A stretch of DNA of 38,076 bases from a virus. Taxonomy: Duplodnaviria; Heunggongvirae; Uroviricota; Caudoviricetes. Below, in pieces: positions 1 to 28,854 of this stretch. The notes under the pieces are model-generated. The model had not been told where the DNA came from. It saw nothing but the letters and a program-made list of their open reading frames with translations, and did no database searches. Positions within the stretch are counted from its first letter, which is position 1, and every line of letters begins with the position of its first letter. The stretch spans positions 1 to 38,076 of the IMG/VR virus record IMGVR_UViG_2690316068_000004. One strand, 5' to 3'. A program made the position numbers and the translations under genes.

Positions 1-858
1 ATGATGGCATTATTACTGGAGCCACTGCAGTTCACCTTTATAAGTCACGCACTGCTGATTTCACTGGTAGTTTCCATACCCTGTGCGCTGCTGTCGGTCT
101 TTCTGGTCCTGAAAGGTTGGGCACTGATGGGTGACGCGATGAGTCATGCGGTTTTTCCTGGCATCGTGCTTGCCTGGATTCTGGGGTTACCTTTGGCTAC
201 AGGGGCATTCGTCGCCGGAGTATTCTGCGCGGTGGCGACGGGATACCTGAAAGACAACAGCCGAATCAAGCAAGATACAGTGATGGGGATTGTTTTTTCT
301 GGCATGTTTGCCGCAGGTCTGATCTTGTATATTGCAGTCAAACCAGACGTACATCTTGACCATATTCTTTTCGGCGACATGCTCGGGATAACCATCGGCG
401 ATATAATCCAGACGGTGATTATTGCTGGGCTGGTTACACTTGTTATTAGCGTAAAATGGCGAGATTTTTTGCTGTTCAGCTTTGATTATCAACAGGCGCA
501 GGTAAGCGGTTTGCATACGAGATGGCTGCATTATGGGCTGCTGTGCATGGTCTCTCTGACCATTGTGGCGACGCTGAAAGCGGTAGGTATCATTCTCTCC
601 ATTTCTCTGCTCATTGCGCCTGGCGCCATTGCGGTACTCCTGACACAACGCTTTTATATTGCGCTCCTACTGGCGACTGGCATATCGGTAATAGTGTCAA
701 TGACCGGTGTCTGGCTGTCCTTTTTTATCGACAGCGCACCAGCTCCGACGATTGTCGTCTTATTCGCGGTCGCGTTCATCATGACGTTTACCGTTACCAG
801 CATCAACGCACGCACAAAGGGAAACGCCCATACACAGGATCTGTTATCACCCAATTAG
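1..858 (+). CDS. sitD: ABC-3 family metal (Mn/Fe) transporter permease, SitD/MntB-like; ORF begins at window edge so the true start may lie upstream
   Basis: 285-aa polytopic hydrophobic ORF whose sequence I recognise as SitD/MntB-type permease; ends at 858, convergent with the prophage tail fibre gene. Confidence 0.65.
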   Translation: MMALLLEPLQFTFISHALLISLVVSIPCALLSVFLVLKGWALMGDAMSHAVFPGIVLAWILGLPLATGAFVAGVFCAVATGYLKDNSRIKQDTVMGIVFSGMFAAGLILYIAVKPDVHLDHILFGDMLGITIGDIIQTVIIAGLVTLVISVKWRDFLLFSFDYQQAQVSGLHTRWLHYGLLCMVSLTIVATLKAVGIILSISLLIAPGAIAVLLTQRFYIALLLATGISVIVSMTGVWLSFFIDSAPAPTIVVLFAVAFIMTFTVTSINARTKGNAHTQDLLSPN

Positions 859-1862
859 CACAAGATCCGAGGACATCATCGTCCGCCAGCCTACAGCAGT
901 CCGGAAAGTCATGGAAGGTCGTTGGGAGGAGGTACGAATTCTATCATGCAAAAAATACGTAAAATCGATAATAGCTGGAAATAATTCAATACATGCACTC
1001 TCGAAAGTGCATCAGCCAACCGTGGCACGTTTTTGCATACAACGAGCCACGGTTCTCTTTACGATTTATAGCTGTATTGGTGAACTATGAGCAATTTTCG
1101 CGTTATATTCCAATCTTTAATCTCTTCACGGAACAAGTTGCATGCATGACTATATCAAGACAACTTATAACTACCAAAACATTTGCTTTGCAAGCAAAAA
1201 CGGGGACCATTGACTCTAAGAAAAATCCGATCTATTGTTAGGATTATTAAAGTTACTTAACAGTATTCCGAAATGAAAATACAAAGCAAGCTGATTGTCT
1301 TATTAAACATTATCATTGCATTTATACTATTTGAGCTTTTAGATCAAAAATTCGGTTTGAGTACATTATTTTAAAGCAAGATAAATAATATCGGGCACTC
1401 TAGTTTTTATAATTAACAATTAAACGCCCATAAAATGTTATTTACGTTTCTTCGCTATTGTAATATCTTAATATAGTGGTTTACGCCACTCTACTTTCAT
1501 CATATTTTGTACGTTTATGTACTCGCCATGAAACTCTTTCATGGCGCTTTCTTATTCTCAATCCAAAATCGTACTCTCTATCCTATTGCAAATCACGCCT
1601 TAACAAACTTATAACACATTTAAGTGATTATTACTAACTTACTCAAAAACAGATATTATTCACAGGTGATGAGTTCTAATGAATTACACTTCGGTGCTGC
1701 TGGCCAATCAACATCAGGTGCAGTTGATGTATCAACGCGGTTCAGCAACACCCGATACTTTTTCCAGACTTCCAGCAACGAAGTTTCTTCCTCCGTTGCG
1801 ATTTCCAGCTCAACAACAGTCTGAACGTACCAGGAACAGCCTCCTTCAGGGCTTGAAGGATA

Positions 1863-4800
1863 TCAATGTTCGCTTCCTGTTAACTGCCGGACAAGTGCAA
1901 CCAGTTCGCTTACCTGATTTTCCAGAGTGGTGATCCGGGTGCCTGCTGTTGCCAGATTTTCACGTAACGTTGTATTTTCCTCTTCCAGCGCGGTAACGCG
2001 ATCATCTGTTTCACGGGCGACCTGAATAAGTAAGCCAGTCACGGCGGCGTAGTCAACATTCAGATAACGTGTTTCTTCACGTAATTCATTGCCGTCAACC
2101 GTTGGTCCCTGCAACTCTTTACCGTAATGAGTGAATGAGCCTACCGCTTCCGGTATTGCCTCCATTGCTTCCTGTGCAATAACACCAGCGTAAGGTAGTC
2201 CGTTTTCCTTAAGTGTGTAGGTGTACCCGTTCATTTTACGGATAGCTTCGGTTGCGTCACTGATAATCTGAATATTGTCTTTCAGCTCGCGGTCTGATAA
2301 CTGATTCAGTGTTGTACAGTTAATAGCACCGTTTACATCAAACAGCTGACCTGACGATGTTTTTTGAGCATAAAACAGATACGCGGCAGACGTTCCAACC
2401 TCAAAAACGTTTTGTCGATCACTTGAACCCCACACCTTGACAGCAAATGATAGTTCTGTATTACCTAAGTTCTGTAAAACAAAACGATTGCCAGTCCCTG
2501 TTTGTTTTGTAAGAGCTAAATCAACAGTTGAGTTAACCTCATCCTTGTTGATAGTGAGCGCCTGCGCTTTAGCCCCGTTAACAGCACCTGTTTTGAGTTG
2601 AACCGCGCCGTCATTACCATTTAGCAGTATCTCAGCTCCGCTAAAGAAATTTTTTAGCGACAGCATCTTACTTACGCCGACTGATGAACCCAACGCCCAC
2701 GCGAGAGAATTACCGGTGCTATCAAACCCACGTACAAAGCAATCCATTTTGCTATAGTCTGACGTGCTTCCAAGGACATCAATCCGCCCTCCGCCAGATT
2801 TTAACGGGTTAGATGTGGTTAATGACCTGACAGCAAGATCGGTGGATGAATTTAGATCGTCTACTGTTAGTAATTTCTTCCATTCCTGCGTCGTTCCGTT
2901 TTCAACTGTTCTTCCCCAAAAACCGGAATTGCGGCCTCCGAACTGCACAGCATAATTTTTACTAAATTGAACATGAATGCCGCCAAGAACCATAGAACCT
3001 GCCGGGCCGTTTGTACTGCCTGCAATTGGTATAAATTTATTAATGTTATCAGTATGCTGCGTGTTCCAGTCTCGTCCTGTTTTTGTAAGCAGTCCTAATG
3101 TCGTGTCGAGCGCTTCGGTTAAAGTAAGGTTTTTAAATTTAACTGCGCTACTTTCGCCAAGACTTAAGTTGTTTCGCGCATCTTCTACTGTTGTCGCACC
3201 TGTACCTCCTTGCCCAACAGCTAATGGCAACCAGCCAGTGCCATTATGACAACCCCACAAACCAGATTTGGAAACCTGTAAGCGTGGTGCGCCTGAAGAA
3301 TACGTAGAATATACGTAAGTTGTTTCTTTTCCCTCTTCAACCCTTTCTGTTGATACATCTCTCTTCCATTCAGACCAGGTACCGCTACCTCCTTCATATA
3401 TTCGTCTATAAGTAATTCCCGGATTATTATAAGGGTAGTACACCTGAACGCAGGAAGAAGCAGTGTTGGCTCTCGTTTGGAGCACTATTAAAGCGCCCGC
3501 CAGACCGATTGGGTAATTTAATTCTTCTGTTGCGTAAGCGCTCGCTGGTTGTTGATAGAAACCAGAATATTCACCGGTAAGGGTGTTTAGGTCAGTATTA
3601 GCAAGACCAGCTTTTTGCTCATACATTACCCGCAAGTTCGCACGTGCTTGCTCGATAGTTCTTCCACCAGTACCGCCCTGGGCTAAACCTAACGGAGACC
3701 ATTGTCCAGAAGAAGAATCATAAACCCCCCAACTCCCGTTAGTATGGATTTCAAAGAAACGATCGTTAGTTGGGCCATATATACGAGTCGTCGATTCGTT
3801 TTGAAATAATCGACTGACTTCATCTTTGCGAGCGTGGCGTGTCCATTGCGGGCCTATACTAGTTAACCAGCGATAGGTGTAAATGGATCTGGTGTTCCAC
3901 CCCTGGAAAATACCTGTATAAGCTGGCGATCCGTCAACCTGACTTATAAAGCCAGTTAAATTACCCTCACCCGATGCAATCGAAGGAAAACCCGTGGCAT
4001 TTTCCATGATGCGCATAAAGCCAATATAACCTGATGGATTTCCTGAGATGTCAGAGCAATCACGCGGTGATGATCCCAAACCGATGTTAGTACCAACAAT
4101 ACCCTGGGCCTGGTTGCGATAATTAAGTGCGTCCGCCGCAGATTTCGCCGCGTTTGTTTCACTGGATTTAGCATTAGTTTCGCTGGCTTTAGCGTTGGTT
4201 TCGCTGCTCTTTGCTGCTGCTTCGCTATTTTTCGCGTTGGTTTCTGATTTTTTGGCTGCTGTCGCGGAGTTTGCTGATGCAGTTTGTGAGTCTGCTGCCG
4301 CCTGTGCGCTGTTATCCGCATTCGTCTCAGACGTTTTTGCGGCCTTCGCGGAATTTCCTGCCGCCGTTGCCGAAGAGGCTGCACTACTGGCGCTCGAGGC
4401 TGCGCTCGTTTCTGATGATTTCGCTGCCTCTTTTGAGGCCGCCGCATCCCGGGCTGAGGTGGCAGCTTCTGACGCTTTCGTGGTCGCGGTGGATGCAGAA
4501 GTGGCTGCAGATTTTTGTGACGCTGCAGCATTCGTTTCTGACGTTTTCGCCGCACCGGCACTGGTAGCCGCCGCGCTTTTTGAGGACTCTGCAGCGGCAG
4601 CACTTTTTGATGCTTCAGTAGCCTTTGTTGATGCCGTTCCTGCGCTGGAAGACGCTGACTGAGCCGACGACGCGGCCTGTCCGGCTGACGTGCTGGCTGC
4701 GCGTGCTGAGTCTGCAGCATCAGTCGCATAGGTTGCCGCCTCACTGGCCGATGTGCTGGCATCGCTGGCTGACTTCTTTGCGGCTGCCGTGTTCTGTGCC

Positions 4801-5159
4801 ACTGCGGACGCGTTACGCGCCACCTCTTCCACCATCAGTTCAAAGCGGCGCAGTGCCTCCGGACGGGCATCATCCTCCGTCATGGCACCGAGAAAATCAT
4901 TCAGCGTACCGGGTCGGGAATCTTCATACACGGTGATGGTCCCGGCATGTGACGGCGGGAATCCTTCCACCAACAGAATAACGCTGTACTGACCGTACTC
5001 AACGTCCATGCTGTAACGCCCGGCTTCATCCGGATTTTCAGATGCCACCGTGTTCACCACCACCGTGGTGCTGTTACGTTTTGCTTTCAGCTGGATTGTG
5101 CAGTTCTGTACCGGTTTACCTGCACCGTCTTTCAGTACACCTGAAATCTTTACTGCCAT
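1863..5159 (-). CDS. stf: Side tail fibre protein Stf, with A/S/T-rich repeat region and C-terminal intramolecular-chaperone-like domain
   Basis: N-terminus MAVKISGVLKDGAGKPVQNCTIQLKAK... matches lambda Stf as I recall it; 1098 aa; no separate tfa ORF downstream. Confidence 0.9.
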   Translation of the reverse strand: MAVKISGVLKDGAGKPVQNCTIQLKAKRNSTTVVVNTVASENPDEAGRYSMDVEYGQYSVILLVEGFPPSHAGTITVYEDSRPGTLNDFLGAMTEDDARPEALRRFELMVEEVARNASAVAQNTAAAKKSASDASTSASEAATYATDAADSARAASTSAGQAASSAQSASSSAGTASTKATEASKSAAAAESSKSAAATSAGAAKTSETNAAASQKSAATSASTATTKASEAATSARDAAASKEAAKSSETSAASSASSAASSATAAGNSAKAAKTSETNADNSAQAAADSQTASANSATAAKKSETNAKNSEAAAKSSETNAKASETNAKSSETNAAKSAADALNYRNQAQGIVGTNIGLGSSPRDCSDISGNPSGYIGFMRIMENATGFPSIASGEGNLTGFISQVDGSPAYTGIFQGWNTRSIYTYRWLTSIGPQWTRHARKDEVSRLFQNESTTRIYGPTNDRFFEIHTNGSWGVYDSSSGQWSPLGLAQGGTGGRTIEQARANLRVMYEQKAGLANTDLNTLTGEYSGFYQQPASAYATEELNYPIGLAGALIVLQTRANTASSCVQVYYPYNNPGITYRRIYEGGSGTWSEWKRDVSTERVEEGKETTYVYSTYSSGAPRLQVSKSGLWGCHNGTGWLPLAVGQGGTGATTVEDARNNLSLGESSAVKFKNLTLTEALDTTLGLLTKTGRDWNTQHTDNINKFIPIAGSTNGPAGSMVLGGIHVQFSKNYAVQFGGRNSGFWGRTVENGTTQEWKKLLTVDDLNSSTDLAVRSLTTSNPLKSGGGRIDVLGSTSDYSKMDCFVRGFDSTGNSLAWALGSSVGVSKMLSLKNFFSGAEILLNGNDGAVQLKTGAVNGAKAQALTINKDEVNSTVDLALTKQTGTGNRFVLQNLGNTELSFAVKVWGSSDRQNVFEVGTSAAYLFYAQKTSSGQLFDVNGAINCTTLNQLSDRELKDNIQIISDATEAIRKMNGYTYTLKENGLPYAGVIAQEAMEAIPEAVGSFTHYGKELQGPTVDGNELREETRYLNVDYAAVTGLLIQVARETDDRVTALEEENTTLRENLATAGTRITTLENQVSELVALVRQLTGSEH

Positions 5160-5223: not shown

Positions 5224-5823
5224 TCAGAACTTATAACCGACACCCACGATGAAACCGTCAGTGCGCCAGTCGCCACTGCCGGAGCCTTCATAAGCAATAT
5301 CAATGGCCACGGATTCGGTCGGGTTAAACTGCACGCCAGCCCCCCACGCCAGAGACGTGTTGCTGCGGCGACCGTCATCACTTCCGGTCAGAACTTCGTG
5401 CGTTTTCCCCTTGTTGTCAGTTACGCGGAGATAATCCCCGGAGAAAGTCGACACACGGCTGTAAGCCACACCCGCCATCGCATACGCGCTGAACCATTCA
5501 TTCACGCGTACAGACGGCCCCGCCATCACGCTGAACCAGCGGTTACGCACGGAATCTTCATGCCAGCGGGTATCGCTGTAACGGGTCAGCTGGCGATTCT
5601 TGTCTCCTGCATAGCTGAATGACGTCACCAGCCCCAGTGTGTCCGTAAACTCATAACGGTATTTCACGTTAATCCCGTTAAGATCATCGCTGCCGGGAAC
5701 GTTCGTCGAGGCATGAAGATAGCCCGCGCTCAGCGTGGACTGATGTTCAGACGCCCATGCAGGCGCACCGGATACGGCCAGACAGATGGCTGCGGACAAA
5801 ATGGCGGCATAAAGTTTACGCAT
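5224..5823 (-). CDS. lom: Lom outer-membrane protein (Ail/Lom family beta-barrel)
   Basis: 199 aa with signal peptide; ends in aromatic C-terminal residue (GVGYKF); position between J and stf as in lambda. Confidence 0.9.
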   Translation of the reverse strand: MRKLYAAILSAAICLAVSGAPAWASEHQSTLSAGYLHASTNVPGSDDLNGINVKYRYEFTDTLGLVTSFSYAGDKNRQLTRYSDTRWHEDSVRNRWFSVMAGPSVRVNEWFSAYAMAGVAYSRVSTFSGDYLRVTDNKGKTHEVLTGSDDGRRSNTSLAWGAGVQFNPTESVAIDIAYEGSGSGDWRTDGFIVGVGYKF

Positions 5824-5889: not shown

Positions 5890-9291
<3,402 letters not shown>

Positions 9292-28698: not shown

Positions 28699-28774
28699 TG
28701 GTGCTGGTTAACGGACTTGAACCGCCACCCATTCGCTTACAAGGCGACTGCTCTACCATTGGAGCTAAACCAGC
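28699..28774 (-). tRNA. tRNA, predicted anticodon UGU (Thr) from hand folding
   Basis: 76 nt folding as a cloverleaf with GCTC/GAGC D-stem, anticodon loop CTTGTAA, T-loop TTCAAGT, encoded CCA; C at position 14 and a G.A pair at the top of the anticodon stem. Confidence 0.6.
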
Positions 28775-28779
28775 ATGTT

Positions 28780-28854
28780 TGGCGGGACAGCGTGGACTCG
28801 AACCACGATAAGAAGGTTAACAGCCTTCCGTAATGACCTTTATACGACTGACCC
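28780..28854 (-). tRNA. tRNA-Asn (anticodon GUU)
   Basis: 75 nt with anticodon arm GAAGG-CTGTTAA-CCTTC, T-arm CGTGG-TTCGAGT-CCACG, encoded CCA; one T.T mismatch in the acceptor stem. Confidence 0.65.

Follow-up and report, generated by a model that had tools for sequence, protein, structure and literature searches.

The side tail fibre gene stf of this virus contains a long tract rich in alanine, serine and threonine, described in an earlier note as a low-complexity run with recurring KSSETNA-type units, and the question that it raises is whether the tract is an unstructured linker, a DNA repeat prone to slippage, or an ordered part of the fibre. In the window (the whole stretch of DNA analysed, 38,076 nucleotides), stf is the last gene of a lambda-like tail module and follows J and lom, all three on the minus strand, an arrangement with which the RefSeq annotation agrees. 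Pfam phage_tail_N (PF08400, PfN) gives a full-length match to Stf residues 1–134 (E = 4.5e-72), PHROG tail-fibre families also match, and E. coli Q5 (NZ_CP127255) has an identical, annotated stf; an NCBIfam search gave no match for Stf. The genes and the parts of the fibre are as follows.

5890..9288, minus strand: J, from the open reading frame list
5224..5823, minus strand: lom, from the open reading frame list
1863..5159, minus strand: stf, side tail fibre gene, 1098 aa, from the open reading frame list
4878..5159, minus strand: N-terminal collar-forming domain for fibre-to-tail attachment, residues 1–94, by match to PDB 9e7m/9mgh
4086..4868, minus strand: predicted continuous α-helix, the proximal coiled-coil shaft (PCoil), residues 98–358, from AlphaFold2 and the heptad register
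4124..4817, minus strand: Ala/Ser/Thr-rich tract, residues 115–345, 33 heptads of the pattern x-x-S-(A/E)-x-x-A
2298..4085, minus strand: distal mature fibre, presumed receptor-binding region, residues 359–954, with two “QGGTG...AR.NL” motifs and knob-like domains
1866..2297, minus strand: predicted C-terminal intramolecular chaperone/S74 self-cleaving domain, residues 955–1098, by Pfam Peptidase_S74
1656..1814, minus strand: relic of tfa, the tail fibre assembly gene, 52 codons, reduced to the final ~42 residues of the domain

The tract is present where it had been reported, residues 115–345 mapping exactly to 4124..4817. Alanine accounts for 36.8% of its residues, serine for 22.9% and threonine for 11.3%, and the three together make up 55–80% of a 20-residue window in the tract versus 15–40% elsewhere in Stf; proline is absent, and there are only four glycines. 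At a lag of seven, residues are identical at a frequency of 0.46 (z = 11 relative to 500 composition-preserving shuffles), and identity is also high at all multiples of seven up to 56. The core positions hold alanine in 31 of the 33 heptads and serine in 28, at spacings of three and four residues, and the register runs unbroken from F106/V113/V120 to L345 with no drift over 230 residues; about 34–36 uninterrupted heptads can be counted over residues ~102–358. The KSSETNA-type units are likewise real: seven K-x-S-E-T-N-A units lie in the tract, at residues 205, 247, 275, 303, 317, 324 and 331, the last three in tandem. Thus, the richness in Ala, Ser and Thr stands as described, but the tract is not mere low complexity; its heptads have the order of a coiled coil.

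The AlphaFold2 monomer model of residues 94–370 is a single helix (segment residues 5–265; mean pLDDT 85, with 168 residues at 90 or above), although, as a monomer model, it shows a helix and not a coiled coil. The shaft helix comprises ~261 residues and would measure ~39 nm if straight. We read the tract, with a probability of about 0.9, as the proximal coiled-coil shaft of a side tail fibre of the lambda Stf type. With core positions a and d filled by alanine and serine, respectively, and position e by Ala or Glu, each chain would form one long helix, and three chains would assemble into a parallel trimeric rod of roughly 35–40 nm, a trimeric state of this Stf being likely by analogy with its homologues, which are trimers by SEC-MALLS and cryo-EM. 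The rod would set the receptor-binding part, at the distal end, at a distance from the collar that the N-terminal domain (residues 1–94) forms by docking on the tail, and its role is presumably that of a spacer. Counting against the coiled-coil reading is that a core of Ala and Ser is small and polar to a degree unusual among stable coiled coils.

Beyond the shaft, no Pfam family was found over residues 359–954. Residues 525–670 match the tail fiber protein of PDB entry 6cl5 (E = 8.9e-6), and relatives are named “pyocin knob domain-containing S74 family peptidase” in RefSeq. A chaperone-like C-terminal domain had been proposed, and the domain search bears this out with a match to Pfam Peptidase_S74 (PF13884) at residues 955–1006 (E = 2.2e-13; 50.7 bits versus a cut-off of 22). 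Ser955 and Lys960 are invariant in 19 homologues, and S955, D956, L959 and K960 are invariant in alignment A1; in the phage long-tail-fibre chain 6f45, the segment aligned with S955/K960 reads SDRRIKK. This Ser-Lys pair, five residues apart, we take to be the catalytic dyad, as in endosialidase K1F. Stf ends in a long predicted helix, residues 1037–1094 (AlphaFold2 segment 158–215; pLDDT about 90 over segment 181–210). The AlphaFold2 monomer model of the C-terminal 219 residues is of low quality in the S74 part, with pLDDT under 50 across segment residues 68–127, and a Foldseek search of the PDB with this poor model found only T4 gp34 β-structure, upstream of the S74 domain (E about 2e-3).

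The related claim that there is no separate tfa gene needs qualification: an intact tfa is indeed absent, but a relic lies just downstream of stf. It matches Pfam Caudo_TAP (E = 1.2e-18) over profile positions 90–131 of 131 only and is given in RefSeq as a pseudogene, “tail fiber assembly protein, incomplete, missing N-terminus”; an NCBIfam search gave no match for the relic. The distal module would fold with its own C-terminal S74 chaperone, so that tfa would not be needed and a relic would be left. A tfa relic beside an S74-tipped fibre is a tidy example of replacement of one chaperone system by another through recombination.

At the level of DNA, the earlier statement that the tract is encoded by imperfect nucleotide repeats is weakly true: small arrays exist, but the DNA is no more repetitive than the protein forces. 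Tandem Repeats Finder reports a 21-nt unit present 2.4 times (4156–4206, 86% matches), a 12-nt unit present 1.9 times (4489–4511) and nothing else in the tract, and neither this search nor the shuffle null reveals a long series of near-identical nucleotide units set head to tail. At a lag of 21, nucleotides are identical at a frequency of 0.48 (z = 7 relative to codon shuffles). No exact repeat in the tract is longer than 11 nt; in synonymous-codon shuffles the longest averages 12.8 nt, 93% of the shuffles equalling or exceeding the observed value, and 10-mers that recur number 6 versus a null mean of 17.5. Selection for codon choice that scrambles the tract DNA is not detected, the slight depletion being nonsignificant (about 0.07, one-sided). 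The tract uses every one of the four Ala and six Ser codons, and identical KSSETNA peptides are written with different codons, for example TCC versus AGC. The boxes and arrays in the tract are as follows.

4149..4211, minus strand: three tandem 21-nt units KSSETNA-KASETNA-KSSETNA, residues 317–337, by Tandem Repeats Finder (repeat family D4)
4233..4253, minus strand: KKSETNA box, residues 303–309 (repeat family D2)
4317..4337, minus strand: KTSETNA box, residues 275–281
4401..4421, minus strand: KSSETSA box, residues 247–253, with a 10-nt exact repeat, TCAGAAACGA, in common with residue 207
4489..4511, minus strand: 12-nt unit present 1.9 times, STSASTAT region, by Tandem Repeats Finder
4527..4547, minus strand: KTSETNA box, residues 205–211
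4566..4619, minus strand: imperfect 27-nt repeat in two copies, KSAAAAESS / KSAAATSAG (repeat family D5)

That such a tract can change length by slippage or recombination is confirmed by its relatives, in which the end of the tract was defined both heptad-wise and composition-wise. An end set at the first hydrophobic residue was dropped, since the coil itself contains single L, I or Y residues. Fibres with the same distal module (ALNYRNQ...) carry 17, 18, 20, 32, 33 or 34 heptads and are thus not of one length, and other distal modules join after 22 to about 53 heptads, a range of shaft lengths from 17 to about 53 heptads or roughly 18–55 nm. Length changes are nearly all whole heptads, and of the 141 distinct tracts from relatives, 139 hold to a single register over a span of about 15 to 51 heptads. 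Recombination is seen as deletions of 21, 42, 294 and 336 nt between repeated boxes, all multiples of 21; in two relatives (P0066 and P0111), the tract jumps from the box at residue 205 to the box at residue 303, and the 21-nt KxSETNA array has one, two or three copies, one unit being absent from P0016 and two from P0017/L119 (a 42-nt deletion). Events of the slippage type are perfect tandem duplications, one of 27 nt (+9 aa; L038) in the stretch corresponding to 4566..4619 and one of 12 nt (+4 aa; L052) in the 12-nt unit at 4489..4511. These non-heptad insertions are the two exceptions to the single register. Either the register is not absolutely required or these two alleles are defective, an observation that counts against the coiled-coil reading. 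A scan of genome contigs yielded few loci of use, most of its hits being lambda DNA that contaminates unrelated assemblies.

The tract is also where fibres exchange their distal ends. Among the megablast matches listed (evenly sampled rows for E. coli, best rows for phages), most end within it, at query nt 836–842; nucleotide similarity of most listed relatives is lost directly after the KTSETNA box at 4317..4337, and at least four different continuations follow the heptad of residues 275–281. Divergence points called at the protein level are unreliable in such low-complexity sequence: the StfR class was called at heptad 29, whereas at the DNA level the similarity stops after heptad 25. E. coli genomes with a match carry the common N-terminal ~840 nt at a median of 2 and up to 14 places, and this recurrence probably explains why many database Stf proteins are “partial”. 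Because every heptad resembles every other, any in-frame, in-register crossover or deletion within the tract would leave a continuous rod, and the tract would tolerate both whole-heptad changes in length and exchange of distal modules among the many stf-like prophage genes of E. coli genomes. Such ease of recombination may confer an advantage.

Several open reading frames overlap the tract.

3956..4762, minus strand: spurious reading frame in the +1 frame of stf, 268 aa
4195..4662, plus strand: spurious antisense reading frame, 155 aa
4211..4567, plus strand: further reading frame from the list
4625..4936, plus strand: further reading frame from the list
4753..4992, plus strand: further reading frame from the list

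The first two had been called spurious products of the tract; both exist, and stop-codon counts and Pfam searches agree that they are compositional in origin. They are long, which would be in keeping with a real overlapping gene, yet such a gene is hardly credible and we reject it. The composition of the tract depletes stop codons: there are none in its coding-strand +1 frame and 2 and 6 in two antisense frames (only 2 in 230 tract codons in the frame of 4195..4662), compared with 11–20 per 231 codons in the non-coding frames of the rest of stf. A stop in the +1 frame requires T at codon position 2 (F/L/I/M/V), and such residues are almost absent from a tract of Ala, Ser, Thr, Lys, Glu and Asn; for the antisense frame of 4195..4662 too, the codon types that would give a stop are very rare there. 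None of the extra reading frames has a significant Pfam match, the products, rich in Arg/Gln/Pro or in Ala/Phe/Asp, mirror the tract, and in databases the +1 frame is translated only within frameshifted Stf fusions (P0065 and P0071). Annotation pipelines should not call these reading frames. An intrinsically disordered, flexible Ser/Thr/Ala-rich linker of no defined structure is no more tenable as a reading of the protein itself: the composition resembles that of the low-complexity linkers of many secreted proteins, and Pfam has no model covering the tract, but the strict seven-residue periodicity without drift, the confident AlphaFold2 helix, the lack of proline and scarcity of glycine, and homologous fragments, which form helical trimers in vitro and appear as rods by cryo-ET, all speak against disorder, and we reject the linker.

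A contingency locus, in which slippage-prone DNA would serve mainly for rapid variation of fibre length or phase, has somewhat more in its favour and is still very improbable. The copy number of the 21-nt array does vary from one to three among relatives, the two perfect duplications are of the kind that slippage leaves, and frameshifted versions are found in the databases (P0061, P0065 and P0071). The tract DNA argues otherwise, with its exact repeats of at most 11 nt, its recurring 10-mers fewer than in synonymous shuffles, its use of every Ala and Ser codon with the same peptides encoded differently, and its Tandem Repeats Finder copy numbers of only 2.4 and 1.9; moreover, lengths are mostly constant per module class, at ~34 heptads in 27 distinct tracts and ~49 in 60.

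With the proximal coiled-coil shaft as the preferred reading, a further and rather doubtful proposal is that the KxSETNA-coding boxes (GAAACNAACGC, core GAAAC[GC]AACGC) could be preferred crossover points for swaps of distal receptor-binding modules and for whole-heptad resets of length, the shaft length perhaps also being tuned to the thickness of host O-antigen or capsule. Counted by hand, about 9 of the roughly 15 distinct junctions and deletions have an end at a KxSETNA box, the boxes making up ~7 of 34 heptads; the events were hand-classified from sequences that are not independent, and, given the unreliability of divergence points called at the protein level, this enrichment is only suggestive.

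The tract is an already described domain, and the finding is real but ordinary: a 2012 paper already described the Ala/Ser heptads, the trimeric helical nature and the seven-residue length steps, and the lambda homologue was visualised in 2025. In practical terms, the tract is a natural seam for fibre engineering, published chimeras being joined at the end of the coil.

The closest comparison is with the Stf of lambda and Ur-lambda (Yu et al. 2025, PMC12617516; PDB 9e7m/9mgh). The Ur-lambda Stf chains (“Tail fiber protein”) share the collar domain, matching residues 1–94 here with E = 2.7e-51; the cryo-EM paper places gpStfN at residues 1–91 and a linker at 92–101. The lambda gene has the same place after J and lom, its coil has the same Ala/Ser heptads and the same starting point (about residue 102), and lambda DNA is 86.8% identical to stf nt 1–842. 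The proximal coiled coil of lambda Stf, residues 102–393, was seen by cryo-ET, and functional engineered chimeras join foreign distal parts at residue 393, its end according to Yu et al. It is longer than the coil here, at 292 residues (about 42 heptads) versus about 34–36 heptads, and the two proteins are unrelated after heptad 25. The distal part of the lambda fibre is gp37-like and requires Tfa, whereas the present fibre combines knob domains with an S74 chaperone predicted to cleave itself, and of tfa there is just the relic. Rac prophage StfR and related E. coli fibres of 1120–1133 aa share the N-terminal domain and the first 25 heptads at a DNA identity of at least 95% but run to 51 heptads, followed by a lambda-like junction of AEDIASAVALEDAS with TTKKGIVQLSSATN.

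The experimental counterpart is the PCoil of the E. coli prophage collagen-like fibres EPclA/B, which directly follows the same PfN (PF08400), as here. A homologous PfN-PCoil fragment is a trimer by SEC-MALLS, α-helical by CD with reversible melting at 49–52 °C, and a rod by EM, and one PCoil is longer or shorter than another by a multiple of seven residues (Ghosh et al. 2012, PLoS One 7:e37872, PMC3368898). Both tracts are Ala/Ser-rich and of low complexity, with small residues at a seven-residue period and length steps of seven; the EPclA/B PCoil is a trimeric α-helical rod by experiment, whereas the helix of the present Stf is predicted. The EPclA/B PCoil spans roughly residues 101–245, is Glu-richer (13%) and leads into a collagen triple helix, as in locus L022, whereas the tract here is about twice as long, is richer in Thr, Lys and Asn and is followed by knob domains.

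More distant is T7 gp17, of which residues ~172–269 have weak similarity to the tract (E = 0.005) and an HQSEVNA / NSATASANSA stretch of the same style, but the N-terminal attachment and distal domains of that much shorter protein are unrelated. At the other end of Stf, the resemblance is to the endosialidase-type Peptidase S74 of K1F endosialidase and T5 pb1, with a Pfam match above the curated cut-off, the S-D-x-x-x-K motif and the C-terminal place in common; these proteins, like the present fibre, have no functional separate chaperone gene, and cleavage of this Stf is predicted from its sequence.

The window holds the tail end of a lambda-like prophage, coded on the minus strand, with host sitD coming after the side tail fibre gene, stf (J, lom and stf are from the ORF list):

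5890..9288, minus strand: J
5224..5823, minus strand: lom
1863..5159, minus strand: stf, 1098 aa
4124..4817: the Ala/Ser/Thr tract, Stf residues 115-345 (exact mapping)
1656..1814, minus strand: tfa relic, coding for only the final ~42 residues of a Tfa domain (Pfam Caudo_TAP, positions 90-131 of the 131 in the profile, E = 1.2e-18); a RefSeq pseudogene
1..858: host sitD

E. coli strain Q5 carries an stf identical to the window copy. The G+C content is 38% at 1001..2000, from sitD to the stf stop codon, versus 45-60% in the prophage, which marks the prophage-chromosome junction beside the sitABCD operon.

The tract is rich in Ala (37%), Ser (23%) and Thr (11%), lacks any Pro, Trp, Phe, Cys, His, Ile or Met, and contains seven KxSETNA units (starting at residues 205, 247, 275, 303, 317, 324 and 331), which bears out the earlier note's A/S/T-rich run with recurring KSSETNA-type units. 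The note's label of low complexity fits this composition but needs sharpening, as strict heptads and a predicted helix mark the tract as a structured coiled-coil rod. Amino-acid identity at lag 7 is 0.46 (z = 11 versus shuffles) and stays at 0.41-0.47 at each multiple of 7 up to 56, with other lags at or below expectation. Written in rows of seven, the tract has Ser in one column in 28 of 33 rows, followed directly by Ala or Glu, and Ala in a second column in 31 of 33, four residues past the Ser and three ahead of the next; the two columns have the spacing of coiled-coil positions a (Ala) and d (Ser). F106, V113 and V120, towards the end of the Pfam N-terminal domain, open the register, which reaches L345 without a single skip. 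AlphaFold2, run on residues 94-370 as a monomer, predicts one continuous helix over residues 98-358 (mean pLDDT 85). Thr (26/231 residues) and Asn (12/231) are both abundant in the tract, and adjacent prophage genes at 28699..28854 (-) encode tRNA-Thr (anticodon TGT) and tRNA-Asn (anticodon GTT); a link to late-gene codon demand is conceivable.

The imperfect nucleotide repeats reported for the tract exist as a 21-nt periodicity (lag-21 identity 0.48, z = 7), but the DNA itself is hardly repetitive. Tandem Repeats Finder returns only small arrays (21 nt x2.4 and 12 nt x1.9). When synonymous codons are shuffled among identical residues, the longest exact repeat averages 12.8 nt, versus 11 nt in the tract, and repeated 10-mers occupy a mean of 17.5 positions, versus 6. 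Because exact repeats do not exceed this null, the periodicity is imposed by the protein repeat and nothing more. Every one of the four Ala codons and the six Ser codons occurs, and the two identical KSSETNA peptides are encoded differently (AAA TCC AGT GAA ACA AAC and AAG AGC AGC GAA ACC AAC).

The extra ORFs overlapping the tract are spurious, as had been proposed; no Pfam search of them gave a significant match. Their source is codon and residue composition. Neither the true frame nor the coding-strand +1 frame has a stop within 4124..4817, and two antisense frames have 2 and 6, versus 11-20 per 231 codons in non-coding frames of the rest of stf. The +1 frame is stop-free because a stop there needs T at codon position 2 (F, L, I, M, V), and the tract has only V120 and L345; an antisense stop requires TCA in frame, NCT with A as the next base, or a T-ending codon with CA after it. 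Among database entries, only frameshifted ones read the +1 frame. Three such Stf entries (P0061, P0065 and P0071) shift into it within the tract and then run on as Arg/Gln/Pro-rich sequence; they reflect sequencing errors or else are frameshifted pseudogenes, and show the reach of the stop-free alternative frame.

The expectation that the tract changes length by slippage or recombination is borne out among 120 database homologues of the Stf N-terminal 381 residues and 80 viral-contig loci, with steps that are mostly whole heptads. The downstream sequence of the window Stf (ALNYRNQ...) follows 17, 18, 20, 32, 33 or 34 heptads (F106 taken as the start), and the joint with other distal modules comes after 22 to about 53; the commonest class, with 51, consists of StfR-like fibres of 1120-1133 aa. 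Relative to the window tract, deletions at the DNA level measure 21, 42 and 294 nt, and in the StfR class two GAAACGAACGC (ETNA-coding) boxes flank a deletion of 336 nt (16 heptads). A single register runs from start to end in 139 of 141 distinct tracts. Both exceptions are perfect tandem duplications: 27 nt (+9 aa) in locus L038, in the stretch corresponding to an imperfect 27-nt repeat at window 4566-4619, and 12 nt (+4 aa) in locus L052, at the small Tandem Repeats Finder repeat at 4489-4511. Since tandem duplications and a box-to-box deletion are both seen, slippage and between-box recombination both occur, and nearly all surviving length products keep the heptad phase.

The tract is also a mosaic seam, within which similarity to most other fibres ends. 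Megablast matches to the window stf occur in 4,972 of 5,426 complete E. coli genomes; in only 90 of them does the match span 80% or more of the gene. Sampled at even intervals down the ranking, matches mostly stop at nt 836-842, directly past the KTSETNA box at residues 275-281, and others at nt 350, 758 or 978; the best phage records listed, lambda included (86.8% identity), lose similarity likewise. Matching genomes have 2 such places at the median and as many as 14, and thus ample recombination partners; these multiple copies would explain why most database homologues are "partial", cut at contig ends. A KxSETN heptad ends ~9 of ~15 distinct junction or deletion events and makes up about 7 of 34 heptads, a hand count of non-independent events in low-complexity sequence, where protein-level junction calling is unreliable; a preference of junctions for these heptads is a lead only. 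Working engineered lambda fibres carry K1F, K5, P2 and KL106 distal parts, and the lambda-P2 fusion is joined at residue 393, the coil end.

An identical lambda-type stf N-terminus was also found, by genome contig scan, on low-coverage contigs (L003-L020, L025-L027, L029, L033-L036), several of ~48.4-48.5 kb, in assemblies labelled Leeuwenhoekiella, Pseudomonas, Shewanella, Desulfosporosinus, Oceanobacillus, Kitasatospora and others. Its presence in these unrelated assemblies is almost certainly contamination with lambda control DNA.

The chaperone-like C-terminal domain suggested previously is identified by Pfam as Peptidase_S74 (residues 955-1006; 50.7 bits versus a cut-off of 22). Across 19 aligned homologues, the most distant at 62% identity, S955, D956, L959 and K960 do not vary, and S955 and K960 are spaced like the Ser-Lys pair in the self-cleaving chaperone of endosialidases. 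The mature fibre is predicted to comprise residues 1-954. The AlphaFold2 monomer model of this region is poor; the domain is an intertwined trimer. The absence of a separate tfa gene holds for an intact one, which neither the window ORFs nor the RefSeq annotation shows downstream of stf, but the tfa relic lies 49 nt downstream of the S74-bearing stf. We infer that recombination put an S74-tipped distal module in place of a Tfa-dependent one and left the stump as a scar. Within the distal part, residues 486-509 and 642-666 (window ~3150..3700 (-)) carry two copies of the motif W-x-P-L-x-x-x-Q-GGTG-x-x-T-x-E-x-AR-x-NL, and the stretch with the second copy aligns to the tail fiber protein of PDB 6cl5 (E = 8.9e-6); the pair is consistent, at the sequence level, with a duplicated knob unit.

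The first 94 residues of Stf match "Tail fiber protein" chains of PDB 9e7m/9mgh (E = 2.7e-51). In Ur-lambda, gpStf begins with a collar domain at the N-terminus (1-91) and continues through a linker (92-101) and a proximal coiled coil (102-393) to a hinge and a distal part (Yu et al. 2025, PMC12617516). For the tract, a Pfam search of Stf returns no model, and sequence matches to solved structures are all weak (T7 gp17 residues 172-269, E = 0.005; a phage depolymerase N-terminus). The low-complexity Ala/Ser-rich region after the N-terminal domain was named PCoil in a study of E. coli O157 prophage fibres, whose N-terminal domain is that of the window Stf; PCoil is trimeric (SEC-MALLS) and α-helical (CD), melts reversibly near 50 °C, appears as a rod by EM, and is stated to differ in length by multiples of seven (Ghosh et al. 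2012, PMC3368898). The fibre of L022, a locus in a MAG labelled Clostridiales, shares this N-terminal domain and has an 18-heptad Glu-rich coil leading directly into collagen-like GPP/GPK triplets (residues ~106-330), the architecture of EPcl in Ghosh et al. 2012. The window tract is a longer PCoil domain, and the coiled-coil rod, heptad length steps and tfa relic are already established biology for this fibre family.
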